Positions 159 to 47,856 of a stretch of DNA of 64,000 bases are shown here, piece by piece (within the stretch, counting starts at the first letter, position 1; every line of letters starts with the position of its first letter). Under the pieces are notes generated by a model, which was given only the letters and a program-made list of their open reading frames with translations, was not told where the DNA came from and made no database searches. The position numbers were made by a program, and so were the translations under genes. The DNA comes from Escherichia coli (lineage in GTDB: Bacteria; Pseudomonadota; Gammaproteobacteria; Enterobacterales; Enterobacteriaceae): NCBI RefSeq assembly GCF_024223415.1, contig NZ_CP100500.1, one strand, 5' to 3'.

Positions 159-220
159 AATAAACAACACAGCGTCTCATTTGTTGCAGTTAAGTGACAT
201 ATTTAACAGGAGAGTCGGGA

Positions 221-7483: not shown

Positions 7484-7658
7484 AATATTTGTTGTGCCGG
7501 ATCTTTTCCGGCATGATGATGTGTGTTACAGCCTCTGGCTTATAACACTCTGCAGTAGTGCTGGCTGACGTGACTGCCGGATATTCTGGTTTTCTTAAGT
7601 CACGGATATACTGACGACAGGGTTTCACATTCAATATTCAACTGACAGGTATGTTTAT

Positions 7659-8951
7659 ATGGCACACCGCTACCTGACACGACAGGATCACAGGACCTTA
7701 TCTCTGGCTGCGCTCGGAGGCGCACTTGAATTCTATGACTTCATCATTTTTGTTTTTTTCGCCGCCGTCATTGCTGAGCTCTTTTTCCCGCCGGATATAC
7801 CGGAATGGCTCCGTCAGCTCCAGGCATTTGGTATATTTGCTGCCGGGTACCTGGCACGACCTCTCGGCGGAATAATTCTGGCCCATTTTGGCGATATACT
7901 TGGGCGAAAGAAAATGTTCACCCTGAGTATTTTGCTTATGGCAGTACCGACACTTGTTATCGGTATTTTGCCAACCTACAGCTCTGTGGGTACCCTGGCT
8001 CCTGTGCTGCTTCTTCTGATGCGTCTGCTTCAGGGCGCAGCGATTGGCGGTGAAGTGCCCGGTGCCTGGGTTTTTGTTGCTGAGCATGTACCGGAGCGCC
8101 GAACCGGTATTGCATGCGGAACACTGACAGCAGGTTTAACCGCCGGGATCCTGCTTGGTTCAGTGGTTGCCACACTTGTCAATTCAGTATTGTCTCAGGA
8201 TATTGTTTACGATTACGGCTGGCGATTCCCCTTCCTTCTTGGTGGTGTTTTTGGCCTGGCAGCAATGTACCTGCGCCGCTGGCTGGAGGAAACTCCGGTA
8301 TTTCTGGAAATGAAAGCCAGAAAAAAACTGGCTCAGGAATTACCGGTAAAAGCTGTCGTTTTAAGACATAAAAAAGCTGTTGTGATTTCCATGCTGTTGA
8401 CATGGCTGATATCCGCAGGGATTATTGTGGTGATACTGATGGCACCGGTCTGGTTACAGAAACAGTATGACTTTTCGCCGACAGTCACCTTACAGGCTAA
8501 CAGCATTGCAACTATTATGCTGAGTCTGGGATGCCTGCTGGCCGGTATGGCCATTGATTCTTTTGGTGCCGGAAAAACCTTTATATCAGGCAGTATTCTG
8601 CTTGGATGTTCAGGATGGCTGTTCTATCACACTGTCGGTGAGTATCCTGAAATGTTGTTCTGGCTGTATGGGCTAGCGGGATTCAGTGTGGGCATTGTCG
8701 GGGCCGTCCCTTATGTTCTCGTGCGTATTTTCCCCGCAGAGGTCAGGTTTACCGGCATTTCATTCTCTTACAATGTCGCTTATGCAGTGGTGGGGGGACT
8801 GACTCCTGTTGTGGTCACGATGTTAACGGAAATCTCCCCGATGGCTCCAGCATGGTATGTTATGCTGTTATCACTTGTGGGATCAGGACTGGGAATATGG
8901 TTCTGCAGGGATCCCCGTCTTTTTATCTGTCACGCAGACAAAGACAAATAA
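7659..8951 (+). CDS. MFS transporter, metabolite:H+ symporter family
   Basis: 12-TM-like hydrophobic profile with MFS motifs (GDILGRKK). Confidence 0.8.
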   Translation: MAHRYLTRQDHRTLSLAALGGALEFYDFIIFVFFAAVIAELFFPPDIPEWLRQLQAFGIFAAGYLARPLGGIILAHFGDILGRKKMFTLSILLMAVPTLVIGILPTYSSVGTLAPVLLLLMRLLQGAAIGGEVPGAWVFVAEHVPERRTGIACGTLTAGLTAGILLGSVVATLVNSVLSQDIVYDYGWRFPFLLGGVFGLAAMYLRRWLEETPVFLEMKARKKLAQELPVKAVVLRHKKAVVISMLLTWLISAGIIVVILMAPVWLQKQYDFSPTVTLQANSIATIMLSLGCLLAGMAIDSFGAGKTFISGSILLGCSGWLFYHTVGEYPEMLFWLYGLAGFSVGIVGAVPYVLVRIFPAEVRFTGISFSYNVAYAVVGGLTPVVVTMLTEISPMAPAWYVMLLSLVGSGLGIWFCRDPRLFICHADKDK

Positions 8952-8992
8952 TGTTTCACCGTTATATAACGGTATCATTCAGTTTTTAAAAA

Positions 8993-9016
8993 TGGCGACA
9001 GGTTAACCTGTCGCCA
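8993..9016. terminator. GC-rich hairpin (TGGCGACAGG-TTAA-CCTGTCGCCA) after the MFS gene
   Basis: Perfect 10-bp inverted repeat; T-run lies on the minus-strand side. Confidence 0.4.
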
Positions 9017-9585
9017 TCCGGTCAGATGCTCACCAGACCGCGCCCCCCATCAGTCTCCATATCCTCCCCCTTGCCCTGCCGGATGATAGCGCCACGCGAC
9101 ATCACCAGGTAGTGGTCCGCCGTAATGTTCCGGTGAAATCGTCCTGACACGTTTCCGGGCTCGTTATCAGCGGTTTTTGCGAATGATCGCCGCCCTGCGA
9201 TGGTTGATTTATTTTATTGCGCCCCGGCGTCTGCCTTGCCAGGTACCGGAGGCGGGCTCTGAAGTACTGAGTAGGGTGAGCGCGTCAGGCCACGAAGTAC
9301 TGACACGGGAGTTTGTGGCAGGCAGTGAAGTCCTGACCAGGGTAAGGGAGGGGCTGACGTGCATGCCCTGACTGTCAGCCAGGGCGCGTGGTGACTGACT
9401 TTCTCAATAACCCGCTGTCAGGCGCTCAACGCCCGACAGCAGGCCATGGCCCGGTGTGCAAAGACCTGACGGCAGGCCTTGTGTCACCCGGATAAGGTAA
9501 ATCCCTCAAGAGGCAGCAACTCAGCCAGTCGGTCCTCAGGCCACTCCGGCAGGCGCGTCAGTACGTCCGTCAGCCAGGCATGTTG

Positions 9586-11300
9586 CAAAATCGCATCGTG
9601 TTCGATCGCCGATTCGCATCGTACTCGATCGCTGATTCGCATTGTCCGATCATTGATTCGCATCCTGCAGTCACTCCTGGAATTAACTTTTCTGCATAGT
9701 CTCTACTGCTGAATTTTCTTCTCAGTAGAGGTCTTGATGGCTAAAAAGAAAATCTCCCGGAGTTCTATGGAAACCTGTTTAAAAATTCTCCAACTTAAGT
9801 TCGAGCAGCATCAGACAAACCGGACTATCGCACTTACACTGAACATCAGTCCCTCGACTGTTTCCGATGTATTGTCCCGCTTTAAGAACACGTCAATATC
9901 GTGGCCTTTGCCTGAATCGATGACAACTCAACGTCTTGAGGTGCTTATCTTTCCTGGCAAGCAAGCCCCGGAAATGACGCCGGCACTGCCTGACTGGCTC
10001 TACATTGATACCGAACTACGTCGTGTGGGAGTCACTCGTCAGCTCTTATGGATGGAATACAAACATCAGGCTGGTGAATATGCTCTGGGATACTCACAGT
10101 TCTGTCGTCGTTATCTGCACTGGAAAAAAAGCGTGCGTTACTCCATGCGGCAGGAACATCGTGCTGGTGAAAAACTCTTTATCGACTTCTGTGGTCCTAC
10201 AGTCCCTGTTGTTAATCCGGAAACCGGAGAAGAACGCAGAGTGGCCATCTTTGTAGCCGTGATGGGAGCATCTAACTATACCTATGTTGAAGCGTGCGAA
10301 GGTCAGGATCTGATGTCGTGGCTAAACGCCAACAGCCGATGTCTGACCTTCCTTGGTGGTGTACCAAAACTGCTGATCCCGGATAACCTTAAAAGTGCTG
10401 TCAAAAAAGTCGATCGCTACGAACCGGTCATCAATGAGAGTTACCAAGCATTCGCAGAGCACTACAATACAGTGATACTCCCAGCAAGACCAAGAAAACC
10501 AAAGGATAAAGCGAAAGCCGAAACGGCTGTACTTATCGTCGAACGATGGCTGCTTGCCCGCATTCGCAACGAGACCTTCTTTACACTCAGGAGCCTGAAC
10601 AGTCGTCTACGCGAGTTGTTGGTAGAGCTGAATAACCGTCCCATGAAAGGATACGGCAACCAGACGCGTGCAGAGCGTTTTGCCCTGCTGGATGCCCCTG
10701 CATTATCAGCCCTGCCAGTATCAGAGTATGAGTTCGCTGAATACAAAACGGTGAAAGTTGCACCTGATTACCATGTTGAATACGCCCACCACTGGTACTC
10801 AGTACCTCATGAACTGATCGGACAACGGTTATCCCTGAAAGCCACTCAGACAGTGATCCAACTCTGGCATCAGGGGCAATGCGTGGCACAACATCCGCGC
10901 AGCCTCCATGAGTACAAGCACACGACCAACCCTCTACACATGCCTGCAGCACATCAGGCACACAGCAGATGGACACCGGAAAGTCTTCAGGAAGCAGCCA
11001 GAAAGATAGATCCTTATACAGCAATGACAGTGGATAGCATGCTGAACAGTAAACGTCATCCTGAACAGGCTTACCGGACAGTCCTGGGGCTGCTGAGCCT
11101 GAAAAAACACTATGGTCGTGAGCGTCTGGAAAAAGCCTGTCATGTTGCCCGGGAGTGCAGAACGTCGGAAAGAAGGTTCATCGAAAACCTTCTGCGTAAT
11201 AACAGGGAAAACCTTTCCCTCCGGAAAAAGAGAGGCAGACGGAGGGAAACGTATCAAAAATCCAGTTAATACGCGTGATGACTGCCTGCATCACGTTTTC
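9586..11300 (+). mobile_element. IS21-family element remnant (istA only; boundaries approximate)
   Basis: Tandem ~21-bp repeats at 9586-9670 upstream of istA; element truncated before istB. Confidence 0.45.
9734..11269 (+). CDS. istA: IS21-family transposase IstA (cognate istB absent)
   Basis: N-terminal HTH plus catalytic core typical of IstA; no IstB-like ORF follows. Confidence 0.8.
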   Translation: MMAKKKISRSSMETCLKILQLKFEQHQTNRTIALTLNISPSTVSDVLSRFKNTSISWPLPESMTTQRLEVLIFPGKQAPEMTPALPDWLYIDTELRRVGVTRQLLWMEYKHQAGEYALGYSQFCRRYLHWKKSVRYSMRQEHRAGEKLFIDFCGPTVPVVNPETGEERRVAIFVAVMGASNYTYVEACEGQDLMSWLNANSRCLTFLGGVPKLLIPDNLKSAVKKVDRYEPVINESYQAFAEHYNTVILPARPRKPKDKAKAETAVLIVERWLLARIRNETFFTLRSLNSRLRELLVELNNRPMKGYGNQTRAERFALLDAPALSALPVSEYEFAEYKTVKVAPDYHVEYAHHWYSVPHELIGQRLSLKATQTVIQLWHQGQCVAQHPRSLHEYKHTTNPLHMPAAHQAHSRWTPESLQEAARKIDPYTAMTVDSMLNSKRHPEQAYRTVLGLLSLKKHYGRERLEKACHVARECRTSERRFIENLLRNNRENLSLRKKRGRRRETYQKSS

Positions 11301-24337: not shown

Positions 24338-25822
24338 ATGAGTGATTTAATTAATTTTATTAATGGCATAATATGGAGCCCGGCACTGGTCTGGCTTTGT
24401 CTTGGAACAGGCCTCTGGTTTTCTGTCAGGGGACGCTTCCTGCAGCTCCGGCATATTAAAGAAATGCGCCGTCTGATATTCCGGAGTAAACAGAATGATG
24501 CGGGCGTTTCCTCTTTTCAGGCACTCACGATGACACTGGCCGGACGGGTCGGAACCGGTAATATTGCCGGTGTTGCCACGGCTATCACCTTTGGTGGTCC
24601 CGGTGCATTATTCTGGATGTGGGTGGTGGCATTTCTCGGCGCAAGCTCAGCCTTTGTCGAATCCACACTGGGGCAAATTTATAAGGAAAAAATTAACGGA
24701 GAATACCGGGGCGGACCCGCTTTTTACATAGAAAAAGGGCTTGGGTTACGATGGTACGCATGGCTGTTTGCTGTGGTGACGGTGCTTTCCTGTGGGCTGT
24801 TATTACCCGGTGTCCAGGCGAATTCGATAGGAAGCAGCCTGAACCTTGCATTCGGGATTAGCCCCAATGTGACGGCAGCATTTATCGCCCTCCTTCTTGG
24901 ATTCATCATCTTTGGTGGTGTAAAACGGATTGCTGTATTTACCAGTACTGTCGTGCCTTTCATGGCTCTCGGCTATATCATTGTCGCGTGTGTCATTGTT
25001 GCACTTCATATTGAAAAACTTCCCGGCGTGCTCCTCCTTGTCTGGCGCTCTGCTTTTGGACTGGATGCAGGTTTTGGTGCCATTGTCGGGCTTGCCATTT
25101 CATGGGGGGTCAAACGTGGTGTCTATTCCAATGAAGCCGCTCAGGGAACCGGACCTCACGCCTCTTCCGCTGCGGCAGTGACACATCCGGTTAAACAGGG
25201 ACTGGTGCAGGCCTTTTCTGTATATATCGACACGCTTTTTGTCTGTTCAGCTACGGGATTTATGCTTCTTGTTACCGGTCTGTATAATGTTCAGGGCCCC
25301 GGTGATGTTGCCTTATATACCGGTATCGCCGGTGTGGCAGCCGGGCCCGGCTATGTGCAGACAGCCATGGAAAGTATGATGCCGGGGTTTGGTAATTATT
25401 TTGTCGCAATCGCACTGTTCTTTTTCGCATTCACCACGATTGTTGCTTACTATTATATCGCAGAAACTAACATTGCCTGGATTTGCCGTAAAACAGCACG
25501 CCCCTGGCTTATGATTGTACTGAAGATTATGCTGATGGTTTCTGCGGTATACGGTACGGTCAAAACCGCAGATATGGCATGGGGACTGGGTGATATAGGG
25601 GTTGGTATGATGGCATGGCTTAATATCATCGCTATATTGCTTATGGGAGGGACTGCGTTTAATTGCCTCAGGGACTACGAAAAACAGATGTCACAGAATG
25701 CTGACCCGGTATTTGATCCCGAACGCCTCAGTCTGCAAAATGCTGATTACTGGACAGAACACCGTGATGAAGTTAAAAAATTGAGTGAGCCCGGGCCCAC
25801 ATTCCGGACAACGTCGTCGTAA
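24338..25822 (+). CDS. Alanine/glycine:cation symporter (AGCS family)
   Basis: Collinear with YaaJ-type carriers from MSDLINFINGIIW. Confidence 0.85.
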   Translation: MSDLINFINGIIWSPALVWLCLGTGLWFSVRGRFLQLRHIKEMRRLIFRSKQNDAGVSSFQALTMTLAGRVGTGNIAGVATAITFGGPGALFWMWVVAFLGASSAFVESTLGQIYKEKINGEYRGGPAFYIEKGLGLRWYAWLFAVVTVLSCGLLLPGVQANSIGSSLNLAFGISPNVTAAFIALLLGFIIFGGVKRIAVFTSTVVPFMALGYIIVACVIVALHIEKLPGVLLLVWRSAFGLDAGFGAIVGLAISWGVKRGVYSNEAAQGTGPHASSAAAVTHPVKQGLVQAFSVYIDTLFVCSATGFMLLVTGLYNVQGPGDVALYTGIAGVAAGPGYVQTAMESMMPGFGNYFVAIALFFFAFTTIVAYYYIAETNIAWICRKTARPWLMIVLKIMLMVSAVYGTVKTADMAWGLGDIGVGMMAWLNIIAILLMGGTAFNCLRDYEKQMSQNADPVFDPERLSLQNADYWTEHRDEVKKLSEPGPTFRTTSS

Positions 25823-26084
25823 ATCAGAAACATTTTCCCGTCAGATGCCCGACGTATTCTGACGGTTAAGGGGCTGCAGGAGACGATATGCTCATTCCTG
25901 CAGCCCTGATTATTTCCCCTCCCTCCACAGGAAAAACATGCTCCCCTGTATTTTATACCAGATATTTTTATCTTTATCGTCCGGCCACCTTATGGTATAA
26001 AATCCGCAAACGGCAAGGCTGAACAGTACCTCGTTCCGGGTGGTTTGAGACTTTTCTGCCTTAGCCGTTTTCTGATCTTCAACC

Positions 26085-26303
26085 GTGGTATCAAAAATGA
26101 AAACAAAACAGGACTGGTTATTTCAGTTACGGCGATGCTCCAGTATTGAAACCCTGGAAAAAGTTATTGAGAAAAATCATTACTGCCTGACCCCATCAGA
26201 AATGGAAACATTCAATTCAGCGGCAGATCACCGGCTTGCAGAACTTAAAATGAATAAGCTTTATGACAAAATTCCGCCGTCAGTCTGGAAATATGTTTAT
26301 TAA
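26085..26303 (+). CDS. Hha/YmoA-family nucleoid-associated modulator
   Basis: 72 aa, near-collinear with Hha (…LRRC…[11 protein letters not shown]…[20 protein letters not shown]…). Confidence 0.8.
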
Positions 26304-26585
26304 GTCTGCGCCACATACGGGACAAATTCCCGGGGATACGTGACATATGCCGGTAACACAATCACAAATATCGCGGTTGTATCAGCAATTGTTGATACAA
26401 CGAAAAATTTGCACCTGACAGCGGGCAGAAATGAACAGGAAGAATCAAAGCACAACAACTTATTACAAAACTCCGCACTGCCATATCCTGCTTTCAGGAC
26501 CATGCTGATTTTCATGACTGTTCCGGCAGGAACAGTCATTACGCAAAAAACTCCCCGGTAAAACCATTATCTGCCCTCCTGAAAA

Positions 26586-26774
26586 TCACTTCTTCGCAAG
26601 AGTACAACTGAGTTCAGGTATTTTGAGCTGAACACGCACTTTTTTCTGCGCCGGAAAAAATTTACGGTATTCCTCTTCCTTCAGCACTTCACCGGTATTG
26701 CGCCGCCAGATAAATGGTATGCCATCACTTTTCTGAATAACTGCATTAATCTGATAACAGCTCATTTTTCTCAC
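26586..26774 (-). CDS. Hypothetical small protein (62 aa)
   Basis: ORF only; overlaps the 3' end of the GrlA-like gene. Confidence 0.25.
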   Translation of the reverse strand: MRKMSCYQINAVIQKSDGIPFIWRRNTGEVLKEEEYRKFFPAQKKVRVQLKIPELSCTLAKK

Positions 26775-27195
26775 TTTGTTCCGGCGGCATTTCTCCTGCC
26801 CGACGCGAACACATCCAGCGACGCAGAGCCGTCAGCGTGTCTTCTTCCTGAACGCTGCAGGATTTTGGTGTGGCTGGCTGTGGAGCGGGTTGCCGGTAAC
26901 GTATCCCTGAGGCTGGCACAGACGTCACGCCCGGAGATACTGACAGGATCCGGATGGCACGGATTTTCTGACGGTGCGCATCAATCAGGTTAAGTACTTC
27001 GCTGTCAATGAACTCCCGCGCATCGCGGGTAATGAAAAGCAGAATATCGTGTGCCTCTGCCTGGCTGATGCCGAATGCACGCGCAACACAGATTTCGGTC
27101 AGCAATACTTTTTCTCTCAATCCCCACATGGCAACAGCGACATGCAGCGGAGCATGCTCAAAATCACAGACAATTCCCGGTAACATTTTTCTCAT
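26746..27195 (-). CDS. CaiF/GrlA-family transcriptional regulator
   Basis: PLHVAVAMWGLREKVLLTEICVARAFGIS fits the CaiF/GrlA winged-helix pattern. Confidence 0.5.
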   Translation of the reverse strand: MRKMLPGIVCDFEHAPLHVAVAMWGLREKVLLTEICVARAFGISQAEAHDILLFITRDAREFIDSEVLNLIDAHRQKIRAIRILSVSPGVTSVPASGIRYRQPAPQPATPKSCSVQEEDTLTALRRWMCSRRAGEMPPEQSEKNELLSD

Positions 27196-27603
27196 GCCAT
27201 CATCACCACACTAATCCCGCATGACTGGTAATACTTTAACTTCACACGCCATGGACGACAATATGCTGTAAAATCGCATCGTGCCGATCACTGATTCGCA
27301 TCGCATCATCCAGCACATTTACTTTTCCCGGTGTTGAAAGGAAGTATTTGTGGCAGCTTGTTGAAAATACAACTCCACCGGTCAATCCCCAGGATATAAA
27401 GACAGCAACGATAATGCAGGCCAGCCCCGGAGAATAACCTGCAAGAAAAAATGATCCCCCACCCGGTATTAAGGCTGTATGGGCAGGTTAACACGGTGAT
27501 TACTGTCAGTTAATACCATCACGCCGGCCCCAAAAACCTGTGGGCAAGGGGATGTCGTGCGGATCACTGAGCAAATTCATCGGAATGCGCAGCAAAGCAC
27601 TCC

Positions 27604-29955
27604 TCAGAATAACCCCCCTTCACCATCAGCCACAATCCTGTATCCCATCGCCTTATAACCCCGCTGGCGTTTATCCCACATTCTGAGCAGCACAGGATAC
27701 GCTTTATCCACAAAATCAATGATCCTGACATCGCTTTTACCGGTATACTGTCTGTGCAGACGCCCTGCATACTGCTGTAACGTCCCTTTCCATGACACCG
27801 GCATCGCCAGAATCAGCGTATCCAGCGGTGGGTGGTCAAATCCCTCACCAATAAGTTTACCGGTTGACAACAGAATGCGGGGAGAATCCTGAGGAAGCGC
27901 ATTTAACTCAGAAATCAGCATTGTACGCTTTTTTTTCGATAACCGGCCATGAAGCACAAAGGGTGACAGGTTCAGTGAATGCATTACTGATGCTATATCA
28001 TCCAGATGCTCTTTTCGTTCAGTCAGTACCAGAACTTTACGTCCCTGCGCGAATGCCTTCATGGCTTCTTCAGCTATCGCCACAGTCCTGTCATGATCAA
28101 GCGCAATTTCTCTGAAAATATCCTGGATCCCCGCATCCGATGGTAAATGTCCGGATGTAAAACGGAAACGGAGCTGCACTTCCAGATTATGCGGACTTTC
28201 CTTCGGGCTGGCCGCTGTGTGACGAAGGGCACCACAGTACATAAAAATGATGGGATGCAGACCATCCCGTCGGACAGGCGTTGCCGTCAGTCCCAAAAGA
28301 TATCTGGCATTCGTTTCCTTCAGAACAGCAGAAAATGAAAACGCTCCAGCATGATGGCACTCATCAACTATGACTTGCCCGTAATTCCTGACCACAGGTG
28401 CAACTTTGCCATGCCTGAACAGAGACTGCACAACAGCAATATCAATATTGCCAGAGGGGTTATGTTTGCCCCCTCCGATAATACCAATACCGTCACTGGT
28501 CTGCAGAAATACCCCAAGCCGCTCCTGCCATTGCTTTAATAACTCAGTCCGGTGTACCAGTACAAGTGTATTAACTCTCCGTCGTGCAATCACAGCCGCG
28601 GCGGTAACCGTCTTACCAAAAGCCGTTGGCGCACAAAGTACACCAGAATCATAACGGAGCAATACCGAAACAGCCTCTTCCTGATCCGCTCTGAGGTTTC
28701 CCGTGAACACAGCATGACATTCTGTACCTGCAAATCGTTCATCGATGATTTCTGCAGCAATATTGTTGTCACTGAGGAAGGATAATGCGCTGTCCAGACA
28801 TCCACGGGGTAACGCAATGTGTTGCGGATAATTTTCCGCACAACCTGTAACCCGGGGTTTATTCCAGACAGACATTCTCATGGCCTGAGCCTTATAAAAC
28901 ACAGGATTAGGAAACGCAGCCAGTCGAATAAGCCGGTTGGCCAGCGGCTGAGGTAATTGCGCTTTTTCGAAATAGATCTGGTTTGCCAGCGTGATTCTCA
29001 GCGGCTCAGCAACAGAAACCGTCAGTTTGTTTTCTGATGATGTTTTCCACGGCGTGCTCAGGTCTTCGTCGGTAAAGTTCACATCCAGTGGATGAATACT
29101 TCCTGTAGCCCGTAATATTGTCGGTTCTATATCCTGCACATTCATCGGGATCACCGATGCCAGGAATGCCCACTGATCAGGATAAGGCTGAAAATTCATA
29201 TCAACAAAAACACTGCCTCCCGATTCACGCGGTCTTTTTTGCAGAGGTAACGCGATGAGATTGCCGAATCCCCCTTTTGGCATGGTATCCTGATTAGGAA
29301 ATAATCGGTCATAAGAACTCAACCGCAGTTGCCGGGAACGGCTACACGTATGGCTGATAACGGCTGTCCCCAGTCGGCGTGCATCACGGGCCGAAACCCG
29401 GGAAGCAAAAAATATCCAGACATGCGCCCCCTGACGTGAGCGGGATATTTCCAGCGCTGCGGGTATCCCCAGCTCATCACAGGATCGCATGAATGCGGAT
29501 GCATCCTTCTGCCATTCAGCATCATCAAAATCAACAGCCAGAAAATAACAGGAATCGTCTTCCAGCAGCGGATATACCCCGACTGTATGGTAGCCTGCGA
29601 GATGACGGTAAATGACAGGATCGGATACAGGTAGCAACTGACGGTGTGCGCAGTCACCGCATTTTATCCCGGGCTTACCGCAGATTCCCGGCTTCCATTC
29701 GTTAGCACAGGCCGGCGAATACCCTGATTTACCACTGACCTGACTTTCCCAGCGAAGGGCCCATACATCATCACGCCCACGAAACAACCGACGAAATAAT
29801 GAAACCTTCTGTTCAGCAGATAATGCGGAAACATGATGTACAGAACGCTGCGGTTTACGTCGCCATTCAATCCCGTGAGCTTCAAGTAATGAGGCCAGAC
29901 GGGCATTTTCTGCCCTCAGTGCAGCTAATTCGTCGTTATCAGATTGACACACCAT
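27604..29955 (-). CDS. Putative primase-polymerase / SF2 (DEAD/DEAH-type) helicase fusion protein
   Basis: C-terminal helicase motifs I AFGKT, II DECHH, III TAT, VI QYAGRLHR; N-terminal zinc ribbon CGKPGIKCGDCAHRQ and acidic DFDD motif. Confidence 0.75.
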   Translation of the reverse strand: MVCQSDNDELAALRAENARLASLLEAHGIEWRRKPQRSVHHVSALSAEQKVSLFRRLFRGRDDVWALRWESQVSGKSGYSPACANEWKPGICGKPGIKCGDCAHRQLLPVSDPVIYRHLAGYHTVGVYPLLEDDSCYFLAVDFDDAEWQKDASAFMRSCDELGIPAALEISRSRQGAHVWIFFASRVSARDARRLGTAVISHTCSRSRQLRLSSYDRLFPNQDTMPKGGFGNLIALPLQKRPRESGGSVFVDMNFQPYPDQWAFLASVIPMNVQDIEPTILRATGSIHPLDVNFTDEDLSTPWKTSSENKLTVSVAEPLRITLANQIYFEKAQLPQPLANRLIRLAAFPNPVFYKAQAMRMSVWNKPRVTGCAENYPQHIALPRGCLDSALSFLSDNNIAAEIIDERFAGTECHAVFTGNLRADQEEAVSVLLRYDSGVLCAPTAFGKTVTAAAVIARRRVNTLVLVHRTELLKQWQERLGVFLQTSDGIGIIGGGKHNPSGNIDIAVVQSLFRHGKVAPVVRNYGQVIVDECHHAGAFSFSAVLKETNARYLLGLTATPVRRDGLHPIIFMYCGALRHTAASPKESPHNLEVQLRFRFTSGHLPSDAGIQDIFREIALDHDRTVAIAEEAMKAFAQGRKVLVLTERKEHLDDIASVMHSLNLSPFVLHGRLSKKKRTMLISELNALPQDSPRILLSTGKLIGEGFDHPPLDTLILAMPVSWKGTLQQYAGRLHRQYTGKSDVRIIDFVDKAYPVLLRMWDKRQRGYKAMGYRIVADGEGGLF

Positions 29956-30115: not shown

Positions 30116-30679
30116 TCAGTTGTGTCGCGGTCGGCCGCGGTTACTTTTTTCAGGTAGTCTGCTACGCATCAGAATAATACCGTGTTCTTTCTGATCCTGT
30201 TTAGCCAGGTAGCTAAGGGCGTAACGTAAGTCATCTACCGCAGATTTATTACTATAGCGAATTACGTGATCAATACGCACCGGGTATTTATCTTTAGCCC
30301 GGCACAGGTGAAAATAACCATCCCCTTCCGTGATCCGCCTCCAGATATCTCCCAGCAGCCTGGATATCCGGTAAGATTTCTTGTGCCGTTGTCCATCCAG
30401 ATAGCCGATAAAATGAATATGAAGTCCCTTGTTTTGTGTATATTCCATAACCCAGTAATATCCTGCCAGAATCGTTTGGGTTTCGCTAAGTAAGCGCTGC
30501 ATCTCAATACACATACTGTGCTTACAGGAATGACCGAAACTGGGCGTGTCTTTCCTGTAGGCAAAATCAATTCTGAAAGGTAACAGTTTAGAAAAACGTT
30601 GAAACATACCTTCCATGTGTTTATTCACGTCTTTCAGAATCGTGAAATTCATTTCGTAATTGGGATTGGCATTGTACAT
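30116..30679 (-). CDS. HUH-motif protein, inovirus Gp2-like / YfjJ-YagK family
   Basis: GLHIHFIGYLD HUH-type motif; alignable with ORF 14155-14748. Confidence 0.65.
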   Translation of the reverse strand: MYNANPNYEMNFTILKDVNKHMEGMFQRFSKLLPFRIDFAYRKDTPSFGHSCKHSMCIEMQRLLSETQTILAGYYWVMEYTQNKGLHIHFIGYLDGQRHKKSYRISRLLGDIWRRITEGDGYFHLCRAKDKYPVRIDHVIRYSNKSAVDDLRYALSYLAKQDQKEHGIILMRSRLPEKSNRGRPRHN

Positions 30680-31628
30680 TTCATAGTCCTTACTTTATGA
30701 AGGTTGCAGGAAGAAGGAATTACGTAAATACTGAGGGCACAGAAAGGCCGTACCACGGCATTAATAAAAGAGATAACCAGCAGCACAGACAACCTGATAA
30801 AAATGTTTTGTATTACCTCATTACAGCAACGAGGTAATATTTCAGAATACAGTGAGACTCTCTTAAACTGAGGACCAGTACGACTTACAACGGTAAAAAC
30901 ACACCTCATATAATTGAGTTTCAGGAAGCACCATTCAATTACTGTCTCCCTGACATTCACAAAAGTCAGTATCGGGTAGCTACAGGCAACATCGCTATTG
31001 ATACTCCCGCACCATTAAATAAAAACAGAGACTCTGCAGAGAGAGCCTACAGATATTTAACCTCTCCACATAAGAATAATGGTATACAGTCCCCACACCA
31101 TCAAAAGATTGCTTCAGGATAATATTTCCTCATACCTGTAAACAGTACTGAGCCATAACACCAAAACTGAAGATAACATGCACTGATACGTACTTAACAT
31201 CAGTTACGTATCAGACACACATCAGTGGATTAGCTCCCTCAACATCACAGCGAACATTATAATTTATCGCACTACTAAACACTCTCTGGCTGTATGAAGG
31301 CACATGCATTACGCATCTACGGAATGGTCAGCATACAGAGGAGTGACATTGTAAACAGATAACAGATAACATAACTCCCATTAATAATACTAATTAACCT
31401 AAATTATTTATTGAATACGAGAACAATGAGGGAACCTCCTCATCCAGGACTAATGCCAGCAATATCCTGAGCAACACTCTATCCAATAGTAAATAATGGT
31501 TATAACTGTTATATTTACTGACTGACCTGTACCAGCGTTCTGTAATACAACAACGCTGAGATGCTAATGGCATAAGTCTCCTCCGCTATTTACGGAGGAG
31601 ACTATATGTTACTCAACGATTAAGTCAT

Positions 31629-33062
31629 TCAGAGGTCAAAGTTAGGTGCGACATACCACGTTTTATCGTCCATAAGCTGTACAACTCTGTTTTGCTCATA
31701 CAGTAAATCCAGTAACCAGTTGAGTTTATCTTTTTTACGGAAACGATTCGGGCCACGCTGTAAAATGTCATTTTTTTTCATACAGGGAACCCCCTTCTCA
31801 ATGCAATAGCTTTTTATCCAGTTAAAAAGTTCAAGCTCCTCCGGAATGAGTCGCATAGTTACGGTCTGGGCAGAGTTTTCAAACGTTAACGGACTGGATA
31901 ACCGAATATACTCATTACCGTACCATATTGCTAATTCTCTCGCCATTTCAGCTGTGTAGGGGGAAATGTCACCTTCCTCACCGCTGACATGGTGAATAAG
32001 CCCAGCCAGTCTTGCCATATACTCTGCATTTTTAGCAGCATATTCTCTGAAGTCTCTTAAAGGCCCCAGAACCGCCATCTTCGATTCCACATCGTTGTAA
32101 TAGTCCGTCCAGATTCTGGCTGCCTGAGGAGAAAAGTGAAGGCAACGTCGCTCTCCCCTCATAGCCAGGCTTTCATCAATAAGTTCATTGATCCTCTTGT
32201 CAAATAACTCCTGATACTGTGATGAATAATTATCTCCGGTTATTATCCTTGTCCCCTGCGTTGATGTTGGTTGACACATCAAAAACCGTGCATGATGTCC
32301 TGATGTCTTCACCAGTTCTTTTTTTCGTGTACAAAAACCTTTGTGGTAAACATCAGGCTGAATCATCACCGATATCGTCAGTCTTGGGTCCTTCAAAAAA
32401 ATCCCGGGAGATGATTTCCTGTCGATGAAAAGGGAACTACCATCCCATAAAGAGTTAAGTATTCCCAGTTTGCTCATTGCCCGGCTGTCAAAAATCACCC
32501 CGCCCTCACTGGATACAAGAGCAAAAGAGCGATTGCTGTCGGAATAATATTTAAACATTCCCTCTGTCGTCGTATCATTAAAAATTGTCCGATTTATCTG
32601 CGGTGGAACAGGACAACTATTCAGATGCATTCTGAGCTCTGATTCTGTTGCTTCATACTCTTTACCGGCACGAATCTCTTTATGAAGTTTTGACTCCAGT
32701 GCCTTTTGTTTTTGCTCCCATATTTCCTTTTCTGCACTGTAATTCTCAACCAGTTTCGCATATTCTTCCGCAAGAGTTTCATCCCTGAGATAAAATGCTT
32801 TCATAAAAACTTTATCCACGGTCGTTTTCCTTTCGCCGGAATCAGCCAGAATCATAGCGTAAAGATTAGAGGGGCCACGTAAATTACCAGGTCTGCACAC
32901 ATCAATCTGATTCTGACAGGCAACTGACACCGCTGTTAATGCTGCTGTTGCAACCAGAGCCCCGGGCGCCTGTGTATTTTGCTGAGTTTCAATTATTGCA
33001 TTTCTCACCAGAGATGTTAATGCATTTATCGGAAAAGGGGCTTCCTGTTCAAGTAAGGACAT
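31629..33062 (-). CDS. DUF3987-type protein (YfjI-like)
   Basis: Position and composition match CP4-57 YfjI; start set at internal ATG 33062 (GAGG RBS); hairpin 31576-31606 downstream. Confidence 0.7.
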   Translation of the reverse strand: MSLLEQEAPFPINALTSLVRNAIIETQQNTQAPGALVATAALTAVSVACQNQIDVCRPGNLRGPSNLYAMILADSGERKTTVDKVFMKAFYLRDETLAEEYAKLVENYSAEKEIWEQKQKALESKLHKEIRAGKEYEATESELRMHLNSCPVPPQINRTIFNDTTTEGMFKYYSDSNRSFALVSSEGGVIFDSRAMSKLGILNSLWDGSSLFIDRKSSPGIFLKDPRLTISVMIQPDVYHKGFCTRKKELVKTSGHHARFLMCQPTSTQGTRIITGDNYSSQYQELFDKRINELIDESLAMRGERRCLHFSPQAARIWTDYYNDVESKMAVLGPLRDFREYAAKNAEYMARLAGLIHHVSGEEGDISPYTAEMARELAIWYGNEYIRLSSPLTFENSAQTVTMRLIPEELELFNWIKSYCIEKGVPCMKKNDILQRGPNRFRKKDKLNWLLDLLYEQNRVVQLMDDKTWYVAPNFDL

Positions 33063-33321
33063 AAATACCTCAATTTTAGTTAATAAATCAGTAAAGTAGC
33101 AGATATTCCCGCTATAATAGCCAAAATAGCTGCTATGCATAGCCGATATGTTCTGAAAAATACAGTAATCGGGCATACCTGATGTTGAACAAAACGATAA
33201 GGTTGATTCAATTCAGCCTGTATTATTAGCTACGTAACATCATTCACATTGCTCACTCCTGACATCTTCTGATGATTATTTCAACGACGCCTTATTCATG
33301 GTCGTTTTCCTTTTTCATGAA

Positions 33322-33543
33322 TCAAAAAACAACCATAGTGTAAATATTCATGGGTTCACGAAAATTATCTAATCTGCACACATTAGTCAGATCCTGACGG
33401 GAAATTGACATATCTGTTAATACTGGCATTGCCATCAGAGTCAGAGGTACTTGTTTATTATATTGAGCTTTAATCATTGCCTTTCCCATCATTAATGATC
33501 GCGCATATACTGAATACGGCGTATCCGGTTTTATGTAAGACAT
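33322..33543 (-). pseudogene. Truncated tandem duplicate of the YfjI-like N-terminus (73 aa)
   Basis: DNA and protein alignable with the first ~90 codons of 31629-33062 (…VCR..N.R.P.N.Y.M…), then frame break and stop. Confidence 0.5.
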
Positions 33544-33718
33544 AAATGCTTCCTTTGTCGTAATGCGTGTCGGTTATAGCAGCAATTACCGCTACAATAG
33601 CGACAATAGCTGCTCTTTCAACAATGAATGCTGGAAATTCTGTTTATCAATTAAACTTCTGGCTAAATTATTCTTATGCTTCTTTTTCCTCCTGAGGTGA
33701 TCACGTGATGACAAAAAC

Positions 33719-34015
33719 TTATCTGCTCATGGTCATATCTGAAGAAAGCGTATGTCGCACTTCGTCATTAACACCTTTTACTGCTGATCTGGCTGGTACA
33801 GTATGTAAAGTAAGCCATTCGTCAATAGCTGATGAACGCCAGCCCACAGAACCACTACCAAGACGTACCGGCCTTGGGAAGGTTGCATCGTAATATTTCG
33901 ATAACGGATTCATTTTTTCGTAAATTGTCGAACGAGATATACCTAACAATTGGCTCAGTTCAGGCATCCGTAAGATGCGTGAAGGAGTCCAGCAGTGTCC
34001 GGATTGATCTGGCAT
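33719..34015 (-). CDS. alpA: AlpA-family phage regulatory protein
   Basis: …ILRMPELSQLLGISRSTIYEKMNPLSKYYDATFPRPVRLGSGSVGWRSSAIDEWL… matches the AlpA fold; start at internal ATG. Confidence 0.7.
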   Translation of the reverse strand: MPDQSGHCWTPSRILRMPELSQLLGISRSTIYEKMNPLSKYYDATFPRPVRLGSGSVGWRSSAIDEWLTLHTVPARSAVKGVNDEVRHTLSSDMTMSR

Positions 34016-34223
34016 TTTATCCCCCTTAGTGTGGTGAACTGTCGTTACAGTTTGTATTCCTCGGGTAAATTTTTCTGCGTAAAAAAATGGGTTGAGCAAA
34101 AAGACAATAAACAACTAAAAATCAATATGATAGGAAACAACAGCATTATTGTTATTTTACTTTTCCCTTATCGCTGTCGATTCTCATTATCATTCATGGC
34201 AAAAAAACAGTAAAAGAGGCCCT

Positions 34224-34971
34224 AGTAATGACTCCGGTCAGTAGTACATGTGCTTCGATAAATGAACCAATGGCTTTTCGTTAATTTCCACGGAGCGTGA
34301 AAAGCAAATCGTTTTCAGGGATGGGAGTTTGATGTGAGTACGAAGTATCAGATTGTTGCGCTCAATGCGCCGGGTAAATATCCTGCCGACAGGATGCTTA
34401 TCCTGTGGTACTTCTCTGGTATAACTGCACCAGTTTTCACTGGTTATCATGCCTGAGGAGAATGGCTTCAGAAGTTCCGGCAACTCACTACATGTTTCAT
34501 CAGTACGAGGACCAAAAGTGTAAGCCCGCACACCGCCAGATTTGGTGTTATACGCATACCAGAGCCAGTGCTGACGAGCTTTGTTTCCGACAAAGCTCCA
34601 TTGTTCATCAAGTTCGCATATAAGCGCCACATCGGCACTGGCGACTGGAGATGTGGTTACTTTGCATGGTGAGCGTTTTTTAAAGTGCGAATGACTGTGT
34701 TGATACCCACCTTCAGTGTTCTGGAGGTATCGCGAACCCCGGTTCCGTTATGAGCCATTTCAACGATTTGCTCTTTAACACTTGGTTTTCGGGCTTCGCA
34801 GGTGTAATTCAGTTGAAATACACGTTTGCAGGAGCGGCACTGGAAACAGTGCTGTGACCGTGACGGTACACTTTATCGGAATTACAGCGGGGACAATGTA
34901 CGGTAACTGTTGCCATATGGACTCCGGATACCAACAGAATACCCCATTAATCTGCCCCCGGAAGTCATCCC
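34224..34971 (-). mobile_element. IS1-family insertion sequence, divergent copy with frameshifted insA
   Basis: Terminus AGTAATGACTCC at 34224-34235; InsA-like start at 34916; A6C frameshift motif before insB'. Confidence 0.7.
34238..34630 (-). CDS. insB: IS1 transposase InsB' segment
   Basis: ICELDEQWSFVGNKARQHWLWYAYN…RTHIKLPSLKTICFSRSVEINEK matches IS1 InsB. Confidence 0.75.
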   Translation of the reverse strand: MALICELDEQWSFVGNKARQHWLWYAYNTKSGGVRAYTFGPRTDETCSELPELLKPFSSGMITSENWCSYTREVPQDKHPVGRIFTRRIERNNLILRTHIKLPSLKTICFSRSVEINEKPLVHLSKHMYY

Positions 34972-35111
34972 GGTGCCTTCTGACATAATCTGTTAATACA
35001 TGAATTATTGCCCTGTTCAGAAAATATTAATTAAAAAATGAAAACCAGTTAACAGAAAAGCCACATGACATAATGTTAAAATTTTATATCGTGCAATAAA
35101 AGGAGAATGTT

Positions 35112-36938
35112 ATGTACAATTTTATCACTATAATGTATGATGTCTTTTCATGTTTTGGTGTTCTGGCTAAAAACCAGAATATCCGTGACATCCGAAATAT
35201 TAAAAACTTTTCCTCACATCAACATTCACTGGCCGACATGTTTGATGAATTAACATACATTATTGACAAAGAACAGGTACTGAGCACAGAACAACGAAAA
35301 GTTATATTCAGGAGATATGAAGATCTGTATGTTAAACTCATGCACTATTCTGTTTTTACAGACAAAACACATCAAATAATAAAACAAAAATATTTTAATG
35401 ATGTTGTTCCAATGATTCTCGCGCTCGACATCAGGAACACATATCGCCCGGATAATGAGATGGCATTTTACTATCATATCCATTCTTTTCTCACTCAGAT
35501 ACCGGATAATGAGGATGATATATATCATGCTGTAAGGACATATATGAGAAATTATGTTAAGTTATGTTTATCCGGATACACACCAACGAATGCGCATTTC
35601 AAAAATATCTTTGATGGAGTATATGAATTCATTCGTAATATTCGCAAAAACAGTACACCCGGAAAAACAAAACTTATTGCAGCTATCAACATATGCAAAG
35701 AAGCCTGTAAATATCTGCTTTGTTTAAGTGATAAAGACAAGGAAATAATATTTTCCGACTTAGATAAAATTCAGGTTGCATGTTATTCTCTCACTATATT
35801 ACTGGCTTTCGAAAGACGAACATCATTAACAAGTAACCTGGCAACTTTATATAAAATGCTGATAAACGAAAGAGAAGTTTCAGAATATGAATGTCAGCAA
35901 TTATATTTAATCAACCCAATAGATGTAATGAATATACTGAACAAATACATATATTACTTCCCTGGTGAGAATTCACCTCTTTATACACTGAAAATTGACA
36001 GTGCATTATCGTGGGATGCCATTGATGCAATACGAGACTATAGTATTTCTGATATTTATCTTTATCCTGAACAAAAAACAATAAATTGTATCGTTGAGAT
36101 TGAAAACATTGTCTTTGGCGGTTACATTTATACATTGAGCGACGGCGTCACATTACAAAATATGGAAAACACTTTAAAAGATTCCTCATGTCATTATGTA
36201 TTAAATGGCTATACAGAATTTGTTAACTGTTTAAGACAACTTACTTCAGGAAAGACTGAAAGTGTTCAGCGTACCATTAATAAACTGGAGTACGAAAAAT
36301 TACCTTTTGGATTTATCATTGCCGCGTTTGCTATATTAAAAATAGCATTTAAGATAAAGTTCAGTAAAAATCATGTAAATACCAGGGCATTATTAAATGA
36401 CATCAGTTATTTTATGACTTATCAGGGCGAGTCCATTAATCTTATTTCACTGGATCATGAATATCCAGAGTTCCGTCTTCAAAATGACACAAATACATAT
36501 TTATTGGGAAGGATGATATTTCTATATAACTCAATGATCTATAAATTCAGAAACTGCCAGGAACATGAAACCAATAACATTAACTCAGTTATGATAAATA
36601 ACCTATTACAGGAAGTTGATATAGCCCTTGGTAAAATAAATGACATTATAGACAGCAGAAACATATCAGTCCCCCATGAACTGGCAAATATTCTTATCCA
36701 CGAAAAAATACTTACAACACGTGAAAAAAAAGGAAACCTGATAAGCCTGTTTGATGGATTCACTTTATTCCATTGTGTTGGAATGATAACCTTTCTTATC
36801 CATTACCTCAGAACTCCTGAAGAAAAAGTAGAAAATGTATTTATGTTATATGGTGCAGATAAAAACAATAAACTACGCAGAAGACTGATTTATGATGCAC
36901 TAGAAATAATTCAGTCTCAGCAGGAGATGAAACCTTAA
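35112..36938 (+). CDS. Hypothetical protein, 608 aa, AT-rich orphan (no recognisable domain)
   Basis: AAGGAG six nt upstream of the ATG; composition far more AT-rich than flanks; hairpin 36962-36986 downstream. Confidence 0.8.
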   Translation: MYNFITIMYDVFSCFGVLAKNQNIRDIRNIKNFSSHQHSLADMFDELTYIIDKEQVLSTEQRKVIFRRYEDLYVKLMHYSVFTDKTHQIIKQKYFNDVVPMILALDIRNTYRPDNEMAFYYHIHSFLTQIPDNEDDIYHAVRTYMRNYVKLCLSGYTPTNAHFKNIFDGVYEFIRNIRKNSTPGKTKLIAAINICKEACKYLLCLSDKDKEIIFSDLDKIQVACYSLTILLAFERRTSLTSNLATLYKMLINEREVSEYECQQLYLINPIDVMNILNKYIYYFPGENSPLYTLKIDSALSWDAIDAIRDYSISDIYLYPEQKTINCIVEIENIVFGGYIYTLSDGVTLQNMENTLKDSSCHYVLNGYTEFVNCLRQLTSGKTESVQRTINKLEYEKLPFGFIIAAFAILKIAFKIKFSKNHVNTRALLNDISYFMTYQGESINLISLDHEYPEFRLQNDTNTYLLGRMIFLYNSMIYKFRNCQEHETNNINSVMINNLLQEVDIALGKINDIIDSRNISVPHELANILIHEKILTTREKKGNLISLFDGFTLFHCVGMITFLIHYLRTPEEKVENVFMLYGADKNNKLRRRLIYDALEIIQSQQEMKP

Positions 36939-36961
36939 ACAGGAAAATTATTTTTTATAAA

Positions 36962-36986
36962 CAGGGGATTATTGAGTAATCCCCTG
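36962..36986. terminator. Hairpin CAGGGGATTA-N5-TAATCCCCTG between the convergent 608-aa ORF and int
   Basis: Perfect 10-bp inverted repeat; T-run on the minus-strand side. Confidence 0.5.
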
Positions 36987-37122
36987 CTCATCAAAACCCA
37001 CTTTCCTGACAATCTGATAACTATCAGCTCAATACATTTGACATAAAAGAGATCCCTTAATTATTACCGTTACGGTCACAATCACATATCAAATCATGAT
37101 TGTACAATATACATTTTCACTA

Positions 37123-38325
37123 TTATTTATTCATAATCTGAGACATCACATAATCCGCCCATGCCTGCATCATCGGTACACGCTGCTCCAGTAGATCAGT
37201 ACGATGATATGCCGCCTCAACCTTATTTTTCAGCGTATGAGCGAGCGCCCTTTCAGCCAGATCCCGCGAATACCCCTGCTCACTACACCAGTCCCTGAAT
37301 GTTGAACGAAAACCATGTGCCGTGGCGACTCGCCCCGGAATATCACTGACGGCTTTCTTTTTACGCAGAAAACTGGTCAACACCATATCTGAAAGGATCT
37401 GCTGCTTTCTGGGTGAAGGAAACACCAGTTCATCATGCAGACCACGTATATTTTCCAGAATGTAAATAGCCTGTCGGGATAAAGGAACACGATGCTGTAC
37501 CCTGGCTTTCATTCTTTCTGCTGGTATCGTCCATATCTGCTTATGAAAATCAATTTCAGTCCAGCGCATTCCCCTGGCTTCACCCGAGCGGGTTGCTGTA
37601 AGTATCACCATTAATAACAATGCGCGGGTAACATTATAGGGTTCATCGGTATACACACTGGTCGCCACAAAAAGCGGTAACTGCCTCCATGGCATTGCGG
37701 GTTGGTGTTCATCACGTCCTCTTGTCTGCTGGGGAAGCAAATGATCAACCACATCCACAGGATTTGCCACACAAAAACCATGTGCCCATCCCCACTGCAT
37801 AACAACATGAATGCGCTGTTTAACCCGGCTTGCCGTTTCTGACAAAGTTAACCAGACTGGCCGCAGTGTTTCTGCCACGTCCGCAGCCGTAATCGAATCC
37901 AGCGTTTTCGCTCCCAGTTGAGGAAAGGCGTAATTCTCAAGCGTCGATAACCACTGCCGGACATGCTTTGGATTTTCCCATCCAGGAGACAGTTCTGCAT
38001 GTACACGTCTGGCTGCATCGGCAAATGTTGGGATAACAACTTTTTCAGCCTCAGCCTTTTTAATCTCCAGAGGATCATCACCAGCAGCAAGTTGCTCTCG
38101 CATTATCCGGGCAGTACGTGCAGCTTCAGCAATGCTGATCTCAGGGTAAGTTCCCAATCCAGCATTACGCCTTTTTTGTGTCACCGGACTTACATAACGA
38201 AAAACCCATTTACCCCGACCCTTTACTGAAGAAGGATGAAGGGTCAGTCCTGTAATTCCCCCATGGGGCAATGGTTTGTCATCAGGTTTGATATGCCTTG
38301 CTTTCGTATCCGTCAATACTGCCAT
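37123..38325 (-). CDS. int: Tyrosine-type site-specific integrase (P4/CP4-57 IntA-like)
   Basis: IntA-like N-terminus and C-terminal catalytic region (…HGFRSTFRDW…, …LAHTLKNKVEAAYHR…). Confidence 0.9.
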   Translation of the reverse strand: MAVLTDTKARHIKPDDKPLPHGGITGLTLHPSSVKGRGKWVFRYVSPVTQKRRNAGLGTYPEISIAEAARTARIMREQLAAGDDPLEIKKAEAEKVVIPTFADAARRVHAELSPGWENPKHVRQWLSTLENYAFPQLGAKTLDSITAADVAETLRPVWLTLSETASRVKQRIHVVMQWGWAHGFCVANPVDVVDHLLPQQTRGRDEHQPAMPWRQLPLFVATSVYTDEPYNVTRALLLMVILTATRSGEARGMRWTEIDFHKQIWTIPAERMKARVQHRVPLSRQAIYILENIRGLHDELVFPSPRKQQILSDMVLTSFLRKKKAVSDIPGRVATAHGFRSTFRDWCSEQGYSRDLAERALAHTLKNKVEAAYHRTDLLEQRVPMMQAWADYVMSQIMNK

Positions 38326-38485: not shown

Positions 38486-38499
38486 CCCCCTCACCGCCA
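38486..38499 (+). other. 3' remnant of tRNA-Ser (serW-type att core)
   Basis: CCCCCTCACCGCCA matches the last 14 nt of E. coli tRNA-Ser(GGA); the remainder of the tRNA is absent upstream. Confidence 0.5.
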
Positions 38500-38543: not shown

Positions 38544-38692
38544 CATTTTATCTGCCTGTACGGCAGTGAACATGGTGGGCGGGTGGAGTATGTTACCAGT
38601 GAATTTCTAAGCTGCCTGTACGGCAGTGAACGTTTGCTGCAACCGCTAGCCAAGACGGTAGGTTTTTCTAAGCTGCCTGTACGGCAGTGAAC
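38544..38692 (-). CRISPR. Orphan type I-F CRISPR mini-array (3 repeats, 2 spacers, no cas genes in window)
   Basis: Two exact copies of TTTCTAAGCTGCCTGTACGGCAGTGAAC (38604-38631, 38665-38692) plus a degenerate copy ending at 38571; spacers of 32-33 bp. Confidence 0.8.
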
Positions 38693-47560: not shown

Positions 47561-47856
47561 TTTTTACCCCTGAATCCGTTAATCATGGTTTTCATCTTCT
47601 GAATATTGGCGCGTGCTTTCTCCCTGCTGGTGGGCACGTTACGCGGTACGGCCTGCACAAGAGAAAAATCACGCACAAACTGATAAACAGGCATCACGCA
47701 ATCATATTCGTAACCTTCATGGCGGTAGGTGATGCGCCGTTCTGCCACGCCTTTAATCGTTACCGTACCGCCGTAGTTATCACGGAAAATATCGCCGGGA
47801 CGGATTTCAGGCCGAGTGAGGCCGCTGGCAGTAAAGCCAGAATTTTTCTTTTTCAT
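47557..47856 (-). CDS. Hypothetical protein (99 aa), overlap-coupled to the replication gene
   Basis: ORF with 4-bp overlap to the downstream gene. Confidence 0.45.
   Translation of the reverse strand: MKKKNSGFTASGLTRPEIRPGDIFRDNYGGTVTIKGVAERRITYRHEGYEYDCVMPVYQFVRDFSLVQAVPRNVPTSREKARANIQKMKTMINGFRGKK

Follow-up and report, generated by a model that had tools for sequence, protein, structure and literature searches.

Genes at the hha Locus

The sequence analysed is a stretch of 64,000 nucleotides of Escherichia coli DNA, referred to here as the window. Its segment 26085-27195 contains three open reading frames (ORFs), namely, an hha gene, a small DUF1187 ORF that the preliminary description had missed, and the gene of a 149-aa regulator (Table 1). 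The hha gene points towards a two-gene unit formed by the DUF1187 ORF and the regulator gene and, because the orientation is convergent, it is not cotranscribed with this unit. The stop codons of hha and of the DUF1187 ORF are separated by a spacer of 283 bp, within which a perfect 11-bp hairpin is located at 26514-26539. The DUF1187 ORF starts within the 3′ end of the regulator gene, with which it is probably cotranscribed.

Table 1: Features of the locus and of the surrounding island.
Feature	Position	Strand	Product or state	Evidence or remark
Perfect 11-nt inverted repeat, ATTTTATACCA-N32-TGGTATAAAAT	25950-26003			Upstream of hha
Accessory hha paralogue	26097-26303	+	68 aa, intact	Pfam HHA and NCBIfam Hha
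Small DUF1187 ORF	26586-26774	-	59-62 aa	Pfam DUF1187, 23.9 bits (cut-off 20.7)
Divergent CaiF/GrlA-family winged-helix regulator	26746-27195	-	149 aa	Profile of relatives and AlphaFold model
Small membrane-protein gene relic	27245-27500	-	5′-truncated	Marks the mosaic breakpoint
TOTE-type primase-helicase gene	27604-29955	-		Pfam AEP-TOTE (331 bits), ResIII, and Helicase_C
Rest of the island backbone	30116-38325	- (AT-rich ORF, +)
Gp2/YfjJ-like gene	30116-30679	-
YfjI/DUF3987 gene	31629-33176	-
AlpA gene	33719-34114	-
IS1 remnant	34238-34630	-
AT-rich ORF	35112-36938	+	608 aa
P4-type tyrosine integrase	37123-38325	-		Integrase domains; directly left of the serW junction
Island-chromosome junction (14-nt 3′ end of tRNA-Ser serW, CCCCCTCACCGCCA)	38486-38499	+

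The hha product consists of a single domain and scores 106.4 bits against Pfam HHA (PF05321; cut-off 25) and 118.9 bits against the NCBIfam Hha subfamily (cut-off 90). Its matches in the PDB are YmoA, Hha, and chains of the Hha/H-NS complex, with E values of about 1e-25. Translation from the ATG at 26097 gives the 68-aa form that is found in the protein collection; the exact sequence of a 72-aa form, which would start at an alternative GTG at 26085, is absent from that collection. The protein was aligned with K-12 Hha, Cnu, two plasmid Hha proteins, and two hha2-type island Hha proteins. In this alignment, E25 and D48-H49-R50 are invariant, and the window Hha keeps every family-invariant residue. 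In Hha, E25 is needed for H-NS binding. D48 is also essential for this interaction (PMC4519777).

The right arm of the inverted repeat upstream of hha contains a TGnTATAAA box, similar to an extended -10 element, and we infer from this that the repeat may be a candidate promoter or operator. A strict consensus scan for sigma-70 sites across 25700-27700 found none. Searches of PHROGs and PADLOC gave no match for Hha, the 149-aa regulator, or the DUF1187 ORF. The exact product of the last is annotated in E. coli as a DUF1187 family protein. The possibility that DUF1187 is a conserved partner of island hha genes was considered and discarded, since the small ORFs that face hha2-type genes in convergent orientation are of another kind.

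The CaiF/GrlA-Like Regulator

The family of the 149-aa protein is recognized through its relatives. Taken alone, the protein scores 16.9 bits (E = 0.0067) against the Pfam CaiF/GrlA family (PF07180), below the cut-off of 25, and its direct comparison with GrlA (4KT5_C) gives E = 0.005. A word-indexed homology search with it returned no sequence besides the query itself. Exhaustive searching of 1.84 billion representatives with HMMER yielded 51 relatives with 23-41% identity, each of them a representative at 50% identity, and 36 of these were taken into an alignment. PF07180 is matched by 34 of the 36 aligned relatives (best E = 4.8e-17), and the profile of the aligned set matches GrlA 4KT5_C with E = 4.5e-17.

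The predicted structure points in the same direction. The AlphaFold2 model built on the alignment of the relatives has a mean pLDDT of 84.9, with residues 1-90 above 90. GrlA 4KT5_C is its top Foldseek match, with a target-normalised TM of 0.91 and an rmsd of 1.1 Å over 87 residues; the superposed part is the N-terminal three-helix-plus-wing domain. The next PDB matches are generic winged-helix proteins with E values of at least 0.01. The assignment of the neighbour of hha to the CaiF/GrlA type, made in the preliminary description, is thus borne out, with the specification that the protein is a remote branch of the family.

GrlA and CaiF, the activators of the LEE and of the carnitine operon, respectively, share with the window regulator the N-terminal winged-helix domain (seen for GrlA in the GrlR-GrlA structure 4KT5) and a length of about 140-150 aa. 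The window regulator nevertheless has only 25% identity to GrlA/CaiF and, as noted above, a Pfam score under the gathering threshold. It also differs from them by a C-terminal LRxWMxSRRxGE motif, which is conserved within its own subfamily and specific to it. Unlike GrlA, it has no GrlR-like partner encoded beside it: the downstream gene is the DUF1187 ORF and the other neighbour is the truncated membrane-protein relic.

Island Setting and Mosaic Breakpoint

Both genes are carried by a large island that has serW, beside clpA, as its insertion site. The right part of the window (39001-63900) has about 99% identity to E. coli genomes and carries clpA, clpS, cspD, macAB, ybjD, and hcp. In the alignment with K-12, homology resumes exactly at 38486 and continues through the serW-clpA spacer. 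The 64-kb window contains no tRNA gene and no second copy of the 14-nt serW core. The 3′ end of serW, the P4-type integrase, and the synteny of the backbone characterize a tRNA-integrated island of the OI-43/CP4-57 type.

O-island 43 is the tellurite/adherence island of enterohemorrhagic E. coli (EHEC) O157:H7. The backbones of OI-43 in EDL933 and of CP4-57 in K-12 occupy the same integration region as the window island, that is, serW next to clpA. The first ~11 kb of OI-43 reproduces the window order of integrase, AT-rich ORF, IS1 remnant, AlpA, YfjI, Gp2, and TOTE genes. From the integrase to the TOTE gene, the window has about 90% nucleotide identity to the start of OI-43 in EDL933 and to many other strains. 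The TOTE gene closes the OI-43/CP4-57-like backbone, and the similarity ends at ~27595-27627. Past this gene, EDL933 and other strains contain IS elements and other cargo, and neither an hha nor a CaiF/GrlA-like gene is present there.

The truncated membrane-protein relic sits between this backbone breakpoint and the gene of the 149-aa regulator. An E. coli protein of 128 aa matches it over residues 30-89 with 63% amino acid identity, and upstream of the relic there are stop codons. When the segment 25800-27600 was compared by megablast with 5,426 complete E. coli genomes, no match was obtained. An origin outside E. coli, which this result might suggest, was discarded, as exact look-ups assign all the proteins to E. 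coli and the flanks are E. coli core DNA with about 99% identity. Left of hha, the sequence is rare accessory DNA throughout: the block encoding the Na:Ala symporter, a sigma-54 activator, Aldh, and Adh was found in one complete genome, on a different island, and positions 1-9742 in about a dozen genomes. The breakpoint therefore joins an OI-43/CP4-57-like backbone to rare metabolic cargo. With the junction at 38486 and no second att site in the window, the other end of the island falls beyond the window, and hha is placed in the interior of an island that exceeds 38 kb, ~12 kb from the junction. Its position is an internal mosaic joint, not, as had been proposed, the edge of an integrative element.

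Identity and Distribution of the hha Allele

The window gene is not the chromosomal core hha in its normal context, the finding that would have overturned the preliminary description, and its characterization there as an accessory island-borne paralogue stands. The window Hha has 64-68% amino acid identity to core Hha, and at the nucleotide level 70% identity extends over only 166 nt. In K-12, the core order is maa-hha-tomB-acrB, whereas the flanks of the window hha are the Na:Ala symporter gene and the DUF1187 ORF, and neither tomB nor acrB occurs near it. Membership of the Hha family is the point in favour of an alternative in which the gene would be core hha or would encode the toxin of a pair resembling TomB-Hha. 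This alternative is extremely improbable: the different flanks refute it, and the protein is divergent. In addition, no tomB-like ORF is located upstream, where the 274-bp spacer that follows the symporter gene holds only a 44-aa ORF, and the window covers the clpA-serW region, not the acrB region.

The closest Hha proteins are encoded by IncI2 plasmids of ~58-61 kb, with 81-82% amino acid and 76.8% nucleotide identity; among 5.8 billion clustered proteins, none exceeds 82% identity to the window Hha. Like the window protein, IncI2 Hha (e.g., of pRM13516 and pE32511-2) is 68 aa long, and its 14 N-terminal residues are identical. Around hha, these plasmids resemble the window within the ORF only. 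On the plasmid, hha is preceded by a type IA topoisomerase gene and the remnant of an H-NS gene. Plasmid-borne Hha is also known from IncX and IncHI (R27) plasmids.

Other relatives are hha2 and hha3, which are island-borne, flanked by IS elements, and variable in map position and which modulate one ag43 copy (PMC4864382). Hha2 and Hha3 of EAEC 042 (EC042_4516, EC042_4796) are, like the window Hha, products of accessory genes on CP4-57-type E. coli islands. The genes are IS-flanked and present in some strains only, and the proteins share a length of ~70 aa and the same conserved core. The product of hha2 of strain 042 has 72% amino acid identity to the window Hha. The hha2-type chromosomal copies have ~70-72% nucleotide identity to the window gene, below the 90% nucleotide criterion applied in the study of hha2 and hha3 (PMC4864382). 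The context differs as well: hha2 of 042 has an AlpA-type HTH gene on one side and a Gp2-family gene on the other, with agn43 nearby, whereas the window hha is placed between the Na:Ala symporter gene and the DUF1187 plus CaiF/GrlA-like unit. With nucleotide identity below 90% and no AlpA-hha-Gp2 context, the window gene is not an hha2/hha3 allele. The comparison with plasmid and island paralogues that had been suggested at the outset thus places the window hha, by its sequence, as a distinct and new allele of an already documented kind of island-borne Hha.

The exact window Hha is present on ~300 contigs, all of E. coli, and in the 10 places listed the neighbours are the same wherever the contig reaches that far. 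A 146-aa variant of the regulator, found on ~210 further contigs, is part of the same block. No hha gene is called in five of the six loci listed for this variant. Four of its loci, three without an hha call and one with it, were aligned to the window and gave 100% identity over ~750 bp. The absence of hha from some carriers was accordingly rejected; it is an annotation artefact, the DNA being 100% identical. In some carriers, IS66 is inserted at TTACAAAA in the spacer between hha and the DUF1187 ORF, and neither gene is broken.

On these comparisons, the hha/regulator block is essentially clonal. Because the carriers read show 100% identity to one another over ~750 bp, its sequences carry no selection signal. 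This lack of variation is compatible with the view that both genes are silent passengers, unexpressed or functionless, that hitch-hike at a recombination scar and are decaying. The truncated relic that adjoins them at the mosaic breakpoint, the IS66 insertions in the same intergenic region of some strains, and the lack of a consensus promoter in the strict scan could be read in the same way. Several observations speak against this view: none of the three ORFs is disrupted in any of the carriers read, the IS66 insertion leaves both coding regions whole, Hha keeps all family-invariant residues, and the fold of the regulator is predicted confidently. That the two genes are silent passengers is, on balance, rather unlikely.

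Relationship between hha and the Regulator Gene

The adjacency of an Hha gene and a GrlA-like gene raises the question of a dedicated silencer/antisilencer pair, in which Hha would strengthen the H-NS silencing of island genes and the GrlA-like protein would relieve it, so that the element would encode its own switch. Such a pair might act on the AT-rich ORF 35112-36938 or on the neighbouring catabolic cargo, which is sigma-54-dependent. There is precedent for the antagonism in the LEE, where ler, a gene under repression by H-NS and Hha, is activated by GrlA, and the two families act against each other at the same promoters (PMC10877973, PMC6094958). In the window, the two genes are near each other, 283 bp apart, and they co-occur in all carriers read. 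IncI2 plasmids also carry members of both families.

Beyond the clonal block, the adjacency is not conserved. The contexts of seven regulator relatives, several of them on short contigs, were read individually, and none of them shows an hha gene adjoining the regulator gene. Likewise, no CaiF/GrlA gene was found near the hha2-type island genes in the contexts read. On IncI2 plasmids, hha and the CaiF/GrlA gene, whose product has ~37% identity to the window regulator, are ~20 kb apart, unlike in the window. When the latter gene (orf00039 of pHNSHP45) was deleted, growth and fitness changed little (PMC8053102). In the window itself, the two genes are convergent and not cotranscribed, and the IS66 inserted between them in some strains has no apparent consequence. 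Since the regulator relatives never occur beside hha and the hha2-type genes have no GrlA-like neighbour, the adjacency is best read, from the contexts compared, as specific to this lineage and as a result of the mosaic way in which the island was assembled. The earlier idea of a conserved functional module of Hha and a GrlA-like regulator is not sustained by these contexts.

The relation to the AT-rich ORF has to be judged on distribution. This ORF has a GC content of 31-32%, as is typical of H-NS targets; it has no match in Pfam, PHROG, or PADLOC. Its cluster at 90% identity comprises 8,897 sequences, to be compared with ~300 contigs with the window hha, and the ORF is present in OI-43 of EDL933 and in many strains that lack the window hha. 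It is plausible as an H-NS target in general, and nothing ties it to the window Hha. A dedicated link between the two, such as the control that the preliminary description had envisaged, is unlikely because the ORF is far more widespread than the gene. Taken together with the lack of conserved adjacency, this makes a dedicated pair unlikely.

As to the regulator relatives themselves, the subfamily recurs on mobile elements behind adhesin and fimbrial loci. The gene of the closest relative (P0076) directly follows an Ag43/AIDA-type autotransporter gene, and another an invasin/intimin-like gene (P0081). A third, on a conjugative plasmid, follows a fimbrial operon of the K88 type (P0080), and a fourth an MrpH_C and Wzz locus on a plasmid-like contig with Rep3 (P0077). 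A fifth lies among unrelated genes on a short contig (P0078). The IncI2-type relative is found next to repA on 535 plasmids, mostly IncI2. The placement behind adhesin loci fits what GrlA and CaiF are known to do, namely, activate operons that H-NS represses.

The presence of both an Hha and a CaiF/GrlA-like protein on IncI2 plasmids leaves room for a functional connection despite the adjacency statistics. Hha and the GrlA-like protein, perhaps with DUF1187, could form a portable kit by which IncI2 plasmids and islands tune H-NS, with Hha setting the silencing of the element and the GrlA-like protein countersilencing operons for surface structures or transfer. This is a rather improbable scenario; if true, it would define a previously unrecognised subfamily of adhesin-linked antisilencers.

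Probable Role of the Accessory Hha

It seems likely that the window gene encodes a functional accessory Hha that belongs to the H-NS/Hha corepressor pool, that its GrlA-like neighbour is probably an activator, and that their juxtaposition is an accident of island mosaicism. A role in the corepressor pool has been shown for core Hha, for plasmid Hha, and for Hha2/Hha3 (PMC4864382, PMC11796372). For the window Hha, we infer H-NS binding, expression, and regulatory effect from the family. The horizontally acquired protein would bind the N-terminal dimerisation domain of H-NS or StpA via the acidic patch that includes E25 and D48. It would thereby enlarge the cellular pool of Hha-type corepressors, which is expected to strengthen the H-NS silencing of AT-rich acquired DNA. 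In doing so, it would act like core Hha, Hha2, and Hha3 and would not be dedicated to one island gene. Judged by analogy with its relatives GrlA and CaiF, the GrlA-like protein probably activates transcription from promoters that H-NS represses. In this generic form, an element-encoded modulation of H-NS silencing, as first suggested for the locus, is plausible by analogy with these families.

Accessory Hha paralogues such as hha2 and hha3 have been proposed as virulence markers and modulators in E. coli. The window locus adds to them a plasmid-like hha allele, carried by a serW island in a subset of E. coli, which PCR or BLAST screens built for hha2/hha3 would miss. The hha finding itself does not challenge current understanding, and the poorly described regulator subfamily is a more useful by-product of the analysis than the hha allele. 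IncI2 plasmids include mcr-1 carriers. The position of the subfamily downstream of adhesin and fimbrial loci, and next to repA of IncI2, offers a lead on how such genes escape H-NS silencing.

Relatives of the regulator and of Hha

The 149-aa protein encoded beside the accessory hha gene belongs to a divergent CaiF/GrlA subfamily whose members recur on mobile DNA immediately downstream of adhesin loci (L013, L017, L029, L030). These upstream loci are an Ag43/AIDA autotransporter, an MrpH_C/Wzz locus, a K88-type fimbrial operon, and an invasin/intimin-like gene. Such placement suggests that the subfamily acts as local activators of surface structures. A CaiF/GrlA-family protein about 37% identical to that of the window is also encoded next to repA on 535 plasmids, which are mostly conjugative IncI2 plasmids of ~55-60 kb. 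The closest Hha relative is found on the same plasmid type, ~20 kb from the CaiF/GrlA gene and beside a type IA topoisomerase gene, as exemplified by pRM13516 (L021).

Coordinates of the features described (window positions unless pRM13516 is named)
Feature	Position	Strand	Remarks
Perfect 11-nt inverted repeat	25950-26003		ATTTTATACCA-N32-TGGTATAAAAT; ~95-145 nt upstream of hha start
Relic of small membrane-protein gene	27245-27500	(-)	5'-truncated; marks end of OI-43-type backbone
608-aa ORF	35112-36938	(+)	31-32% GC; adjoins integrase
Orphan type I-F CRISPR mini-array	38544-38692		3 repeats, 2 spacers; between island junction and clpA
Second small integrative element	45812-51919	(-)	In core flank
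D5_N/DUF5906/Pox_D5 primase-helicase of second element	45812-47560	(-)	
662-aa ORF of second element	48053-50041	(-)	No Pfam match
P4-type integrase of second element	50681-51919	(-)	
CaiF/GrlA-family gene, pRM13516	48-500		
hha, pRM13516	21222-21428		

Sequences around hha

The right arm of the inverted repeat upstream of hha includes TGnTATAAA, a box similar to an extended -10 element, and no second copy of the repeat occurs in the rest of the window. The repeat could be an operator or a promoter. On the other side of the gene, the spacer between hha and the DUF1187 ORF is a site of IS66-family insertion in some carriers of the block (L006, L007, L009, L032), where one or two elements are inserted at TTACAAAA. 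This site corresponds to window position ~26462-26469, near a perfect 11-bp hairpin (26514-26539), and both hha and the DUF1187 ORF are intact in the carriers with the insertion.

Mosaic structure and cargo of the island

Similarity to the backbone of OI-43, an O-island of EDL933, stops exactly at the membrane-protein gene relic, which is 63% identical in amino acid sequence to a 128-aa E. coli hypothetical protein over residues 30-89. The relic therefore marks a recombination scar. When the distance between window 1-9742 and the clpA flank (39001-63900) is compared with that in the closest complete genomes, the matching DNA lies ~230-285 kb from the flank in TUM9803, GF60, and TUM1886, whereas the spacing here is 29 kb. 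Thus, either a rearrangement has placed the left portion of the window beside the serW island, or in those strains that portion is part of a much larger or different island.

Searches of Pfam, NCBIfam, PHROGs, and PADLOC give no match for the AT-rich 608-aa ORF. Its cluster nevertheless comprises 8,897 sequences from E. coli and Shigella, and the ORF is also conserved in OI-43. Since positions beside an integrase typically hold variable cargo, a defence or conflict role for this ORF is worth testing.

The clpA side

Two repeats of the CRISPR mini-array match Rfam CRISPR-DR4 (50 bits), and alignment with K-12 reveals the same array minus one spacer. It is the known cas-less CRISPR array of the E. 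coli clpA-infA locus. The second integrative element is carried by only some E. coli strains.
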